DNA from: a virus
Lineage: Duplodnaviria; Caudoviricetes
Virus record (IMG/VR): IMGVR_UViG_3300046002_003876
Span: 1-30,311 of that record
Reading direction: 5' to 3' (one strand)
DNA: 30,311 nucleotides
Shown one piece after another: positions 10,491 to 17,717 of the stretch; the stretch's first letter is position 1, and each line of letters begins with the position of its first letter. The notes below the pieces were generated by a model that was not told where the DNA came from, made no database searches, and worked only from the letters and a program-made list of their open reading frames with translations. A program made the translations under genes and the position numbers.

Positions 10491-11635
10491 TGCCGCAGCC
10501 CTCCTTGTCAGAAGCCGACCTCCAAGACACCTACGAACTGGTCTGCCGCTACCAGAACGTCACGCGTGCTGCCGAGGCGGTGGGTATCAACCGGAAGACT
10601 TTTAGCGCCCGCTGGCTGATGGCGCGGAGCTGGGCGCGGAGCCGTGGCTTGCCCGTGCCTGCGGTCGGGCTGGCCCCGCCGACGCCGGAGCCGCCGCCGC
10701 CCCCGCCGCTACCGCCCACGATGGTGGCGCAGCCGCGCGCCGCCTACGAGGAGACGCCGTCGCGCTTGCCGTCCACCGCCGAGGAAGCCTGGGCGATTCT
10801 GGATGCGTTCATCGGCCGCGCCCGTGTGCAGGTCACCGCGCCGCCCTATCAGGCCGGAGAGACGCGCCGATATGTGGTGGCGTCAGACTTTCACGCGCCC
10901 TTCCATGACCCGGAGGCCGTGGCGCATCTCATCGCGCAGGAGGGGGGCAAGCCCGATACGACACTCATCATTGCGGGCGATTTCCTCGACCTCTACAGCA
11001 TCTCGTCCTATAGCAAACACGAACGCGTCGGCATCGAGACGGAACTGGCGGGGGCCGAAGCTCTGCTCGGCACGCTGGCCGGGGCGTTTTCGGACATCCT
11101 CCTGATTGAAGGCAACCACGACCAACGGCTTGACCGCCGCGTGCGGGCGCTCCTGCCCGAAGAGATGGTGGCGGCGCTGCAATATCTTGCGGGCGGCGAC
11201 CTCTCGGTGCTGCGCGCCATGTGCCGCCGCTATCCGAGTGTGCGGTTCAACCCGGTGCAGGTGGGTCGGTTCGACGTAAAGTGGTGTACGCAGGTGGGCG
11301 ACATCATCGTCAGCCACGCGGAGAAGTTCTCGCGCGTGCCGGGGTCGGCCATGCGCGGCGTGGAGGAATGGCTGAGCGACCAGGAACAGGCCATGCAGCT
11401 CGACCCGTGGCGCATCCTCTGCCAAGCCCACACGCACCAGCTGGCGTGGATTCCGTGGCGCGCCGACAAACTCCTCATCGAACTCGGCTGCATGACGGAG
11501 ACGCACGGCTACCAGCTCTCGGCCCAGGTGCGCGGACGCCCGCAGCGCCGGGGCTACTGCACCCTGACACAGCATAAGGGCCGGACGGACATGCACTCGG
11601 TGCGGATGGTATGGCTCGACCCAGCACGCTGGTAG
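10490..11635 (+). CDS. Calcineurin-like metallophosphoesterase with N-terminal HTH
   Basis: Motifs SDFH, GDFLD, GNHD, SHAE, AHTH. N-terminal NVTRAAEAVGINRKTF helix-turn-helix, then a poly-Pro linker. Confidence 0.88.
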   Translation: MPQPSLSEADLQDTYELVCRYQNVTRAAEAVGINRKTFSARWLMARSWARSRGLPVPAVGLAPPTPEPPPPPPLPPTMVAQPRAAYEETPSRLPSTAEEAWAILDAFIGRARVQVTAPPYQAGETRRYVVASDFHAPFHDPEAVAHLIAQEGGKPDTTLIIAGDFLDLYSISSYSKHERVGIETELAGAEALLGTLAGAFSDILLIEGNHDQRLDRRVRALLPEEMVAALQYLAGGDLSVLRAMCRRYPSVRFNPVQVGRFDVKWCTQVGDIIVSHAEKFSRVPGSAMRGVEEWLSDQEQAMQLDPWRILCQAHTHQLAWIPWRADKLLIELGCMTETHGYQLSAQVRGRPQRRGYCTLTQHKGRTDMHSVRMVWLDPARW

Positions 11636-12230: not shown

Positions 12231-12780
12231 CGGCGTGGCCCTCGTGGGCCTCGGACACAAAGCGCGGCAGGGCAAGGACATGCTGACCGATGCCCTGCTC
12301 AACCACTACGGCAACAGCCGCCGCTTGGGCTTTGCCGACGCGGTGAAGGTGCTGGCACGGGCCGACTACGGCATGACGACCAAGGACGGGCCACTCCTGC
12401 AACGGCTCGGCATGGAGGGCCGCGCGCATGACCCGGACACGTGGGTGCGCATTGTGGCGTGGACGATCCATGAGTGGCTGGAGAGCGCGCCGGAGGGGCT
12501 GCTGGTCGTGATTCCGGATCTCCGGTTCCCTAACGAGGCCGCGTTCATTCGCGCCTACGGGGGCATCTGCGTGGACGTGCGGCGGTGGCATGCGGACGGC
12601 TCGCGGGTCATCACGACCGACCGAGATGCGGGCCACGCCAGCGAGACCTCGCTGAACGGCTTCACGTTTGACGCCATCATCGACAACATCGAGGCGCGCC
12701 AGGACGAGGCGCGCGACCGGCTGATTCGGCTCGTCGACCGAGCGTTTGACCCAGACCGCGCGCGACGGAGGTTCCAGTGA
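12199..12780 (+). CDS. Deoxynucleoside monophosphate kinase (T4 gp1/T5 Dnk-like)
   Basis: P-loop variant GHKARQGKD, FADAVK, LLQRLG.EGR, DLRFPNE, HASE. Confidence 0.88.
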   Translation: MMTTTTWPDLDGVALVGLGHKARQGKDMLTDALLNHYGNSRRLGFADAVKVLARADYGMTTKDGPLLQRLGMEGRAHDPDTWVRIVAWTIHEWLESAPEGLLVVIPDLRFPNEAAFIRAYGGICVDVRRWHADGSRVITTDRDAGHASETSLNGFTFDAIIDNIEARQDEARDRLIRLVDRAFDPDRARRRFQ

Positions 12781-13118
12781 CGCCGCTGGTCTATATCGCG
12801 GGACCCATGACGGGCCTGCCGAGCTGGAACCACCCAGCGTTCTATGCCATGGAAGAATGCCTGCGGCAGCGGGGCATTACGGCCATCAACCCAGCAACGC
12901 TGAATCCCATCACACGGCCGTGGTGGCGGTGCCTGCTGGTCTGCCTGTGGCATCTGCGCTTGGCAGACGCCATCGTGCTGCTGCCCAGCTGGGAAGCCTC
13001 ACGGGGCGCGCGCTGGGAACTCTGGCTGGCCCTGTGCCTCGGGTTGCCGGTCTTTGTGGCCCCGATGCAGGCCGAGCCGCCAGCCATTGCGCCGCCGACG
13101 TCTGGCGTGGTGCATTAA
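12777..13118 (+). CDS. DUF4406-like protein (nucleoside 2-deoxyribosyltransferase-like fold)
   Basis: VYIAGPMTGLP..N.PAF, INPA, ADAIVLLPSWEASRGARWE...A..LGLPV. Confidence 0.85.
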   Translation: MTPLVYIAGPMTGLPSWNHPAFYAMEECLRQRGITAINPATLNPITRPWWRCLLVCLWHLRLADAIVLLPSWEASRGARWELWLALCLGLPVFVAPMQAEPPAIAPPTSGVVH

Positions 13119-13127
13119 CGCAAACTT

Positions 13128-13136
13128 TGGTATAGT
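13128..13136 (+). promoter_or_regulatory. Extended -10 promoter candidate for the small RNA
   Basis: TG-G-TATAGT ending 6 nt before the first hairpin at 13142. Confidence 0.55.
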
Positions 13137-13141
13137 CGAGA

Positions 13142-13218
13142 CATTCGCCCTCCGCGAATGCGCGTGTCCTCCGCACGCCTGCCCCGGCACTGCCGCCCAA
13201 CGGTGCCGGGGCTTTTTT
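13142..13218 (+). ncRNA. Candidate three-hairpin small RNA with CCUCC loops
   Basis: CATTCGC-CCTCC-GCGAATG, then GCGTGT-CCTCC-GCACGC, then a terminator hairpin and T6. Confidence 0.65.
13181..13218 (+). terminator. Rho-independent terminator
   Basis: 12-bp stem GCCCCGGCACTG / CGGTGCCGGGGC (one G-U), 8-nt loop, followed by TTTTTT. Confidence 0.85.
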
Positions 13219-13223
13219 ATCGC

Positions 13224-13252
13224 TTGCACTGATGTCTTGCATGGTGTATAGT
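13224..13252 (+). promoter_or_regulatory. Sigma70-type promoter
   Basis: TTGCAC - 17 bp - TATAGT, directly after the terminator. Confidence 0.7.
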
Positions 13253-13259
13253 AATTCGC

Positions 13260-13475
13260 ATGGACAATCGACCAGACGGGGCAATGACCATGAAAGAGTA
13301 TGCGGCCGAGCTGGGGGTGACCCGCGCGCGGGTGCATCAGCTCGTGCAGGCCACGGGGCTGACGCTGGCCAAGTTTGGCGGCGTCTGCATCCTGACGCCT
13401 GCCGACCGCGAGGCCATCCAGAACCGGCCGCGCCGCAAGACGGGACGGCCGCGCAAAGTGCAGGAGGCACAATGA
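13260..13475 (+). CDS. Small HTH DNA-binding protein with AT-hook-like tail
   Basis: MTMKEYAAELGVTRARVHQLV helix-turn-helix and C-terminal KTGRPRK. Confidence 0.75.
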   Translation: MDNRPDGAMTMKEYAAELGVTRARVHQLVQATGLTLAKFGGVCILTPADREAIQNRPRRKTGRPRKVQEAQ

Positions 13476-13576
13476 GGACACCGAAAGAACCGACGTGGGG
13501 CGAGGCGCTGGTGTTTGGCGTGGTGGTTGGACCCATCATGGCCTTCTGGACACTGGTGGCATTGGGCGCATTCTAA
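13472..13576 (+). CDS. Small membrane peptide
   Basis: AGGAGG RBS, ATGA overlap, 34 aa hydrophobic. Confidence 0.55.
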   Translation: MRTPKEPTWGEALVFGVVVGPIMAFWTLVALGAF

Positions 13577-13594
13577 AACGACAGCGGAGGGCAT

Positions 13595-14206
13595 ATGCAG
13601 GTCTACAAGGCAATTGCGGCGGTGGCCGCAGAGTTGGCGCAAGTGGGCGTGGGCAAGCGCCAGAAGAACGAGTCGCAAGGCTTCCGGTTCCGGGGCATTG
13701 ACGACGTCATGAACGCGCTATCGCCGGTCATGGCGCGGCACGGGCTGATGCTCCTGCCACGGGTGCTGTCACGCACGGTAGTTGAACGGGCGAATGCGCG
13801 TGGCACGGCCCTGTTTTATGTGGTTTTGGATGTGGAATACGACATCGTGGCCGCAGAAGATGGGTCCAAGCATACCGTCCGCGTGATGGGCGAGGCGATG
13901 GACTCTGGAGACAAGGCCACGAACAAGGCGATGTCTGCCGCCTACAAGTATGCGATGTTTCAGGCGTTCTGCGTGCCCGTCGACGGCACGCCGGATGCGG
14001 ACGCCACGACGCACGAAGTGGTGGTGACCGAGCCGGAAGGCTTCTCGCAGTGGCTGCTGGACCTCGAAGTGCTGGCAGAAAATGGGTCCGCGGCGGTGGC
14101 CGAGTGCTGGAAGACGAGCAAGCCGGAATACAAGACCTTCGCCAAGACACACTACGACCAGCACTTGTCTGGCATCAAGGCCCGTGCGGCACAGGTGCAG
14201 GCATGA
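13595..14206 (+). CDS. erf: ERF-family single-strand annealing recombinase
   Basis: FRFRGIDDVMNAL.P, GEAMDSGDKATNKAMSAAYKYA...FCVP, DAD. GGAGG RBS. Confidence 0.85.
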   Translation: MQVYKAIAAVAAELAQVGVGKRQKNESQGFRFRGIDDVMNALSPVMARHGLMLLPRVLSRTVVERANARGTALFYVVLDVEYDIVAAEDGSKHTVRVMGEAMDSGDKATNKAMSAAYKYAMFQAFCVPVDGTPDADATTHEVVVTEPEGFSQWLLDLEVLAENGSAAVAECWKTSKPEYKTFAKTHYDQHLSGIKARAAQVQA

Positions 14207-15104: not shown

Positions 15105-15110
15105 GGTGGT

Positions 15111-15272
15111 GCCGGTTGTGCTCGGTGCCCCCGCTTCAGCCCGAACCCTGAGCGGAAACCACCGCACGCTGTGTGCGGCGCTGGGAGGCGGCACAACCGG
15201 CCCTGCATCTGGGCCGACGCTTCGGTGCTTTCACTTAATTGAGGTGGAAGGAGAGACGCCGGGGCGTCGGTC
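15111..15272 (+). ncRNA. Structured RNA region (multi-branch element plus long hairpin)
   Basis: 11-bp perfect stem 15111-15121/15191-15201 enclosing two hairpins. 16-bp stem 15212-15227/15257-15272 plus inner 9-bp stem. Confidence 0.45.
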
Positions 15273-15399
15273 TGGTATAAACTAGACGGGCACGACCGAG
15301 GTATGAGGCCTCGCCCGTGCCCTGACCGTGACGCTGGAATCCGCAGCGACAGGCTCCCGCCATTGTACCGTGGGTGCTGTCCTGCATGAAAGGACAGAG
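15273..15399 (+). promoter_or_regulatory. Extended -10 promoter and structured 5' leader of the replication initiator
   Basis: TGGTATAAA at 15273. Hairpins at 15288-15322, 15332-15348 and 15377-15397, the last covering the RBS. Confidence 0.5.
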
Positions 15400-17372: not shown

Positions 17373-17401
17373 TTGACACGCTGAAAGTAGGCATGTAAAG
17401 T
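17373..17401 (+). promoter_or_regulatory. Strong sigma70-type promoter
   Basis: TTGACA - 17 bp - TAAAGT, AT-rich upstream tract, hairpin TGTCGGC/GCCGACA (17408-17428) at the predicted 5' end. Confidence 0.8.
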
Positions 17402-17447
17402 GGTTTCTGTCGGCGGGCGGTGCCGACAACAACCAACGGAGGACACC

Positions 17448-17717
17448 ATGACGAATACGGACTGGACACGGAACACCACGATTGGCAACGCAACCAACCC
17501 CGGCGTGCAGGATACCGGCACCGGAGCATTGGCCATTTATGAAATCAACTCAGCCTATCCAGGGGTGCAGCGCATCACGGTGCGCCCGTATGCTGGGCGA
17601 GGTGCCACGACGCGCTATTACGTCGACGGGCAGGGCCGTCGCCATGCCTCGCCCACCGCGGCGTCGCTCATGACTGGCGCATCCATCGAGCGGATGCTGA
17701 CAGGACGGTCGTTCTAA
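17448..17717 (+). CDS. Hypothetical protein, first gene after the strong promoter
   Basis: GGAGGA RBS before ATG 17448. 89 aa. Confidence 0.7.
   Translation: MTNTDWTRNTTIGNATNPGVQDTGTGALAIYEINSAYPGVQRITVRPYAGRGATTRYYVDGQGRRHASPTAASLMTGASIERMLTGRSF

Follow-up and report, generated by a model that had tools for sequence, protein, structure and literature searches.

The locus and its predicted small RNA

The window, i.e. the whole stretch of 30,311 nucleotides (30.3 kb) analysed here, belongs to a tailed phage with no close cultured relative of record: among cultured phages only ERF fragments match, capsid and terminase relatives show 30-40% identity, and the HTH alignment, scanned against GTDB, returned 10 weak matches. 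A second record of the same phage (G001) is complete (37.9 kb, terminal repeats), holds both ends of the window and carries 57 genes, called with our own script and located on one strand throughout. Upstream of the element described below lie genes for a lysozyme, a phosphoesterase, a dNMP kinase and a DUF4406 protein, the last being its direct neighbour (12777..13118, + strand; Pfam PF14359, E 1.6e-20). Downstream follow, on the + strand, genes for an excisionase-like HTH protein (13260..13475; phrog_66, E 2.4e-4), a hydrophobic peptide of 34 aa (13472..13576) and an ERF single-strand annealing protein (13595..14206; Pfam PF04404, E 2.5e-20), then those for YqaJ and a replication initiator. 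Judging from gene content and strong sigma-70-like promoters, the downstream block probably comprises early genes. The HTH gene is preceded by a sigma-70-type promoter read from the sequence (TTGCAC-17-TATAGT; 13224..13252, + strand).

Between the DUF4406 gene and this promoter, the first-pass annotation had placed an extended -10 element followed by three hairpins, all of which were recovered at the same positions. The promoter-like extended -10 (TGnTATAGT; 13128..13136, + strand) is one of three TGnTAnnnT motifs on the + strand of the window, and a standard promoter scan detected no -35/-10 pair at it. It would give rise to a predicted small RNA of 78 nt (13141..13218, + strand; earlier put at ~77 nt), the 5' end of which is deduced from promoter spacing. 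According to folding, hairpin 1 (13142..13160, + strand; 7 bp) and hairpin 2 (13162..13178, + strand; 6 bp including a closing U-G) present the same CCUCC pentaloop, at 13149-13153 and 13168-13172, as had been claimed. CCUCC is the core of the 16S anti-Shine-Dalgarno (SD) sequence. The 5' arm of hairpin 1 additionally carries CAU four bases from the loop, which corresponds to the register of GGAGG-N4-AUG. Hairpin 3 (stem 13181-13212, + strand; 12 bp with an 8-nt loop) is followed by T6 and forms with it an intrinsic terminator (13181..13218, + strand), in agreement with the first reading; it also ends the dNMP-kinase/DUF4406 gene run upstream.

The folding z-score amounts to -4.39 for 13128-13218 and to -6.32 for 13140-13218, with none of 200 shuffles equally stable. 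Only two of the 13 CCTCC copies on the + strand of the window close a stem of at least 6 bp, and the tandem pair with identical loops is the sole case on either strand, a configuration yielded by 0/60 shuffles. The close spacing of two CCTCC motifs is not significant on its own (4 matches; reached by 6/100 shuffles). As the minus strand folds equally well by energy (-45.1 versus -43.9 for the + strand), the strand assignment relies on the promoter, on the U tract and on G-U pairing within the hairpins, which breaks on the minus strand, as had been noticed before. Loops of CsrB/RsmZ-type sponges follow an ANGGA consensus; a minus-strand sponge of this type, directed at CsrA, was considered and rejected, with no ANGGA on the minus strand and the terminator on the + strand only.

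The phage harbors further conspicuous features. In the window, the stop of the HTH gene overlaps the start of the small hydrophobic gene (region 13219-13475); a second promoter directly after the HTH gene is present in the relatives G003, the L137 group and L139, with none evident in the window. A hydrophobic ORF of 31-49 aa precedes ERF in 8/8 loci with little sequence conservation; a family search with the window copy (13472-13576) gave no match, and the ORF could encode a host-takeover or exclusion peptide. A gene-free run of 290 nt before the replication initiator (window 15105-15399) aligns across G001, G003 and G005 and holds GC-rich hairpins whose sequences vary while the fold is kept; it has no Rfam match and is a candidate for a structured leader, a second RNA or an origin. 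At 17373-17427, a 6-bp GTCGGC/GCCGAC hairpin comes after a strong promoter (TTGACA-17-TAAAGT); early promoters of G003, G005 and L139 have this hairpin or one like it behind them, possibly as a 5' stabiliser or operator. Outside the window, G001 encodes a 973-aa protein directly after the major capsid gene (L126 13041-15959, - strand) with glycosyltransferase- and methyltransferase-like segments and a 977-aa counterpart in G003, possibly a capsid or DNA modification enzyme. Finally, G005 contains a gene-free run in its early region (~10906-11095) with short imperfect repeats of the GGCGAGGC/GGCTGGGC type.

Distribution, conservation and variable loops

Relatives were gathered by ERF, kinase and HTH searches. 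They comprise near-identical strains (L001-L004, L133) and five further lineages, namely L134 (HTH 83% identical), G003, G004, the L135/L137/L138 group and L139. In all six lineages a promoter-like -10, a structured unit of 64-78 nt and a U tract lie directly before the HTH promoter. The promoter-like element, read from the sequence as TGnTAnnnT or a -35/-10 pair, is found at the equivalent position in 6/6 lineages; the U tract comprises at least 5 U in five of them and 4 U in G003. In L133, promoter and RNA are identical at 100/100 bases, and the two genes upstream are 93-94% identical. The HTH ATG lies 7 nt after the -10 in the window and 6-7 nt downstream of a -10 in 6/6 lineages; the HTH gene is thus likely leaderless and is therefore predicted to escape the RNA.

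Comparison of the DUF4406-HTH intergenic regions of related phages, which had been proposed as a check, revealed stems with compensatory changes. L134, the closest distinct relative, keeps a single CCUCC hairpin, hairpin 2, with one compensatory stem change. In the terminator stem of the L135/L137/L138/L139 group, 4/16 pairs are compensatory, all four from L139. The loops themselves, which had been expected to be invariant, turned out to vary: the twin pentaloop is confined to the near-identical strains (when 80 ERF loci were searched with strict criteria for paired CCUCC hairpins, only four of these strains came up), and two of the six lineages expose no CCUCC. What is common to 6/6 lineages is a set of exposed C-rich bases, containing CCUCC in 4/6 and the full CCUCCUCCC once, in one G003 loop. 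The architecture presenting these bases differs between lineages: two small hairpins in the window, one small hairpin in L134, a 5' tail in G004, and the terminator loop in G003, L137 and L139.

Among the metagenome loci, nine of 12 were inspected (L136, L143 and L144 left out) and seven carry the unit; it is absent from L141 and L142, which are weak partial HTH matches. About a dozen more HTH homologues are available as sequences lacking their genomic surroundings. Since six distant dNMP-kinase loci and 11 of 79 YqaJ loci, as far as viewed, do not show the gene order of the unit locus (an HTH gene was found in 0/5 of the latter), the RNA unit seems to be confined to one clade. Rfam gave no match at gathering score in the window or in five relatives; its best weak matches (Esr41, anti-hemB, sX13) rest on the terminator and were discarded, the 10 weak matches including no cuckoo family. 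A literature search, with most subscription papers outside its coverage, found no description of this phage RNA element. Taken from sequence data, the element is likely an uncatalogued small-RNA unit of one phage clade.

Predicted pairing with the start sites of early genes

The main predicted target is the ribosome-binding site and start codon of ERF (13584..13597, + strand; rank 2/57 start regions). Hairpin 1 offers a 9-nt perfect complement to 13584-13592 that places its CAU on the ERF AUG, and hairpin 2 can form 11 bp, G-U included, with the same site. Hairpin 2 is moreover complementary over 10 nt to 17437-17446 and over 8 nt to 13474-13481. The former lies in the ribosome-binding site of an 89-aa gene behind the strong promoter at 17373 (17437..17450, + strand), which is predicted as a target at rank 1/57 and whose 10-nt perfect match was equalled by 41/2000 flank shuffles; the latter marks the 34-aa hydrophobic peptide gene as the second predicted target. 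In the relatives, hairpin 2 of L134 forms 17 contiguous pairs (2 G-U) with its own ERF site, and the tail of G004 (L123) forms 16 bp with its own, 14 of them perfect, spanning SD and AUG; its 31-kb record contains no longer perfect complement. The first hairpin of L139 covers the small-gene AUG with 10 nt.

How far such matches exceed the complementarity between any C-rich loop and any SD sequence was addressed with 2000 shuffles of the flanks in which SD core and start codon stayed unchanged. The ERF match including G-U was reached by ~72 (65-72) shuffles for the window, 0 for L134, 533 for G003, 0 for G004, ~1781 (1706-1781; no better than chance) for L137 and 82 for L139. For the small gene, the perfect match was reached by 389, 1124, 122, 29, 434 and 19 of 2000 shuffles in the same order; the window match is thus not significant on its own, and the small-gene matches are lost once G-U is allowed (combined p 0.57). 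It follows from these counts that the signal beyond the SD is strong in two lineages, modest in the window (ERF match p ~0.03; the match is strongest in relatives) and absent for the ERF site of L137. Within the window, GGAGG copies at start sites pair deeper into the stems (mean 7.0 nt, n = 17) than internal copies (5.9 nt, n = 26; p = 0.005).

Because any anti-SD RNA favours strong sites, a matrix of own and foreign pairings served as the key control. Every RNA of the six lineages was paired with every ERF and small-gene start region, giving 720 assignments; L135 and L138 were dropped as near copies of L137, and the lineages are related. For both genes together, the native assignment ranks 1/720 by cofold energy, 1/720 by perfect-match length and 3/720 with G-U, and it ranks 1/24 in all four sister-collapsed sets, in which one of each sister pair was kept. 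For the genome-wide comparison an accessibility model was used, since cofolding cannot see the loop pairing in G003. With this correction, the own ERF start ranks 2/57, 2/60, 1/56 and 1/26 in four genomes, the HTH start 44 (of 57, in the window), 24, 34 and 23. Of the eight best-ranked start regions per genome, 5, 7, 8 and 6 belong to early genes, and the early genes are separated from the others with p values of 0.021, 0.043 and 5e-5, with G005 at 0.21 (not significant), gene calls and early/other boundary coming from our own script and the boundary having been set after the first rankings were seen. Own pairing ranks 1/24 over early genes and 19/24 over the other genes. Words complementary to the seed are enriched in own early genes relative to those of relatives, at 5/17 versus 3/64, 3/23 versus 0/58 and 4/25 versus 1/56, and for G005 at 3/16 versus 3/65 and 2/16 versus 0/65. 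Of the two sets of targets that the first-pass annotation had offered for the RNA, host mRNAs or the phage's own GGAGG-led early genes, these results favor the second.

The permutation ranks, the control with non-early genes, the promoters conserved among lineages and the twin loops of the window all speak against the locus being a mere terminator with protective hairpins, whose matches would reflect the chance meeting of G-rich start sites and C-rich loops. This reading, to which the ordinary appearance of hairpin 3 and the several single matches without significance would be congenial, is regarded as very unlikely.

Part of the pairing signal is generic anti-SD pairing. The window RNA shows weak accessibility-corrected energies (best -7.9 kcal/mol), as its 5-nt loops require stem opening; its mean over own early genes (-2.65) is weaker than that over early genes of relatives (-3.1 to -3.3). 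In cofolding it binds the ERF site of L134 better (-17.5) than its own (-12.0), and it ranks foreign ERF starts at 17/60, 12/56 and 10/26. The G003 RNA places two foreign ERF starts at 2/56 and 1/26. Such high ranks of foreign ERF sites for some RNAs, together with exposed C-rich bases in every lineage, the frequent CCUCC and the single complete CCUCCUCCC, would also be expected from a generic anti-SD RNA directed mainly against host mRNAs, i.e. a cuckoo- or sX13-like agent of host shut-off for which the phage matches are a by-product. A host-only RNA should, however, avoid the early sites of its own phage, and the helices of 16-17 bp with own ERF sites, as well as an own-over-foreign advantage that is limited to early genes, point the other way. 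In addition, the bases flanking the CCUCC core follow each phage's own targets and not the 16S tail, in the form that we assumed for this comparison. An RNA aimed chiefly at the host thus appears unlikely.

The genes closest downstream are the targets found most consistently, which raises the question of action in cis. The hairpins might act only within transcripts that read through from the upstream gene run, where they would pair, 300-450 nt further on, with the sites of ERF and the small gene and thereby keep late read-through from restarting early proteins. Four riverine metatranscriptome runs contain low-depth contigs (2-7 per listed contig) with small word shares, scattered over the region, none of which corresponds to the RNA. 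One low-depth contig from an RNA library bridges 13160-13408 across the terminator, which may reflect either read-through or DNA, and the stem of G003 is followed by just four U. Against a purely cis-acting element stand the promoter-like element, which in 6/6 lineages immediately precedes the RNA, the location of top-ranked sites kilobases off behind other promoters (17437) and the possible DNA origin of the bridging contig, so that we consider it quite unlikely. The metatranscriptome strains carry changes at 13576-13582 beside the ERF site; no change is recorded at 13584-13594 or within those parts of the RNA that the contigs span, an observation that carries little weight at such low depth.

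The covariation of seed and target invites comparison with phage immunity, in which a C4- or CI-like RNA would maintain a carrier state or block superinfection among kin and the covarying pairs would set immunity groups. It recalls the heteroimmunity of P1/P7 by c4 (PMC12197685, in the text available); a gene for a small hydrophobic peptide, loosely reminiscent of icd (PMC8198154, excerpt), is among the predicted targets; and the HTH gene is likely leaderless. Yet genes for a tyrosine integrase, a resolvase or ParA are absent from 4/4 records (one of them 100% complete), with controls found in 12-14/14 genomes. No antirepressor appears among the family matches of the phage genes, Rfam gives no C4 match, and a divergent repressor switch is lacking because all 57 G001 genes occupy one strand. 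An immunity function of this kind is therefore considered unlikely.

Proposed mode of action and comparison with known systems

It is proposed that the element probably encodes an antisense sRNA which, acting in trans, keeps ribosomes from loading on early genes of the phage itself and thereby serves as a timer. The first-pass annotation had assumed a standalone RNA at the boundary of the early operon, which the data support as a predicted unit. The host polymerase would transcribe the predicted 78-nt RNA, or the 3' end of the upstream gene run would also release it, and the RNA would accumulate because both of its ends are structured. A CCUCC loop would nucleate on the GGAGG of an SD sequence, whereupon the short stem would open and let its arms base-pair with the AUG and the flanking bases, so that the paired start sites would exclude the ribosome. 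Gradual build-up of the stable RNA would then probably lead to delayed damping of the early genes, those for recombination and replication among them. Most structural genes would be spared, since GGAGG precedes 8/17 early versus 6/40 other genes.

Tentatively, a wider scheme may be drawn, in which a phage devoid of integrase achieves early shut-off or carrier-state immunity via one master antisense RNA that reads the SD-plus-AUG signature of the early regulon. Following the drift of the start sites, every lineage might build its seeds anew and shift them from one structural module to another, and the leaderless regulator might be built to escape. Anti-SD loops are common in bacterial sRNAs, but which genes they act on is difficult to tell, as their core suits so many; here natural variants point at the targets. 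They may provide ready-made orthogonal RNA-target pairs for learning how flanking bases lend specificity to a generic anti-SD core. The proposed timer further suggests that apparently non-integrating phages time their expression by self-directed translational repression; as far as the available sources describe them, phage RNAs known to act on their own phage mostly control lysogeny and have a single target gene. Phage sRNAs of unknown function come, in the supplementary list of the partly available PMC12197685, only from phages of E. coli, Pseudomonas, Salmonella and Yersinia.

The cuckoo RNAs of Alphaproteobacteria (RSs0680/CcsR, alpha-r14), to which the element had been likened, share with it tandem hairpins, identical anti-SD loops and variable stems, and occlusion of ribosome-binding sites has been proposed for them (PMC4615179, in excerpt). 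The kinship was not borne out: loop motif, size limits, Rfam and host context all disagree. According to the same excerpt, the cuckoo loop motif is CCUCCUCCC in loops of 9-27 nt, and two to four adjacent hairpins of 24-50 nt with stems of at least 6 bp are present; the window has CCUCC in loops of 5 nt and two hairpins of 19 and 17 nt (PMC4615179). Agreement is thus restricted to the two adjacent hairpins and the stems of 6-7 bp. Cuckoo RNAs belong to alphaproteobacterial chromosomes or plasmids, and the available part of their description makes no mention of phages (PMC4615179), whereas the window unit is phage-encoded and its loops vary across relatives.

A closer functional parallel is C4 RNA of P1/P7, whose loop sequences pair around the ribosome-binding region of the phage's own ant mRNA, heteroimmunity resting on this sequence-specific pairing (PMC12197685, PMC8198154 for the former, PMC12197685 for the latter; both in part). 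Here, too, the RNA is complementary to the ribosome-binding region of a gene further downstream on its own phage, and this complementarity varies among related phages. The structure and sequence of C4 in Rfam find no match in the window or in five relatives. C4 targets the icd-ant antirepressor operon of a temperate phage; here, HTH, small peptide, ERF and YqaJ genes occur without integrase, resolvase or ParA. Unlike C4, the window RNA ends at a terminator of its own, with a separate promoter following downstream; it is predicted to target several early genes in different operons, and its seeds are built on SD and start codon. CI RNA of the phage-plasmid P4 likewise silences the phage's own replication genes by pairing with its own transcripts (PMC4825925, excerpt). 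As far as that account extends, CI arises by processing of the very transcript under its control and causes termination at seqA/seqC; the window unit possesses its own terminator, and its matches fall on start sites.

sX13 of Xanthomonas, as well as RNAIII and RepG, resembles the unit in having three stems and C-rich loops that face G-rich motifs near starts, and sX13 represses mRNAs with G-rich motifs near their start sites (PMC3771888, available part). The Rfam gathering score of sX13 (RF02232; 50) is not reached by the unit (19.4 bits, E 0.23). RNAs of this type are regulators encoded on the host chromosome, and their loops are conserved; the seeds found here vary from phage to phage, in step with the viral targets. 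A member of none of these families, the window RNA would work like C4 and the C-rich sRNAs (cuckoo, sX13).
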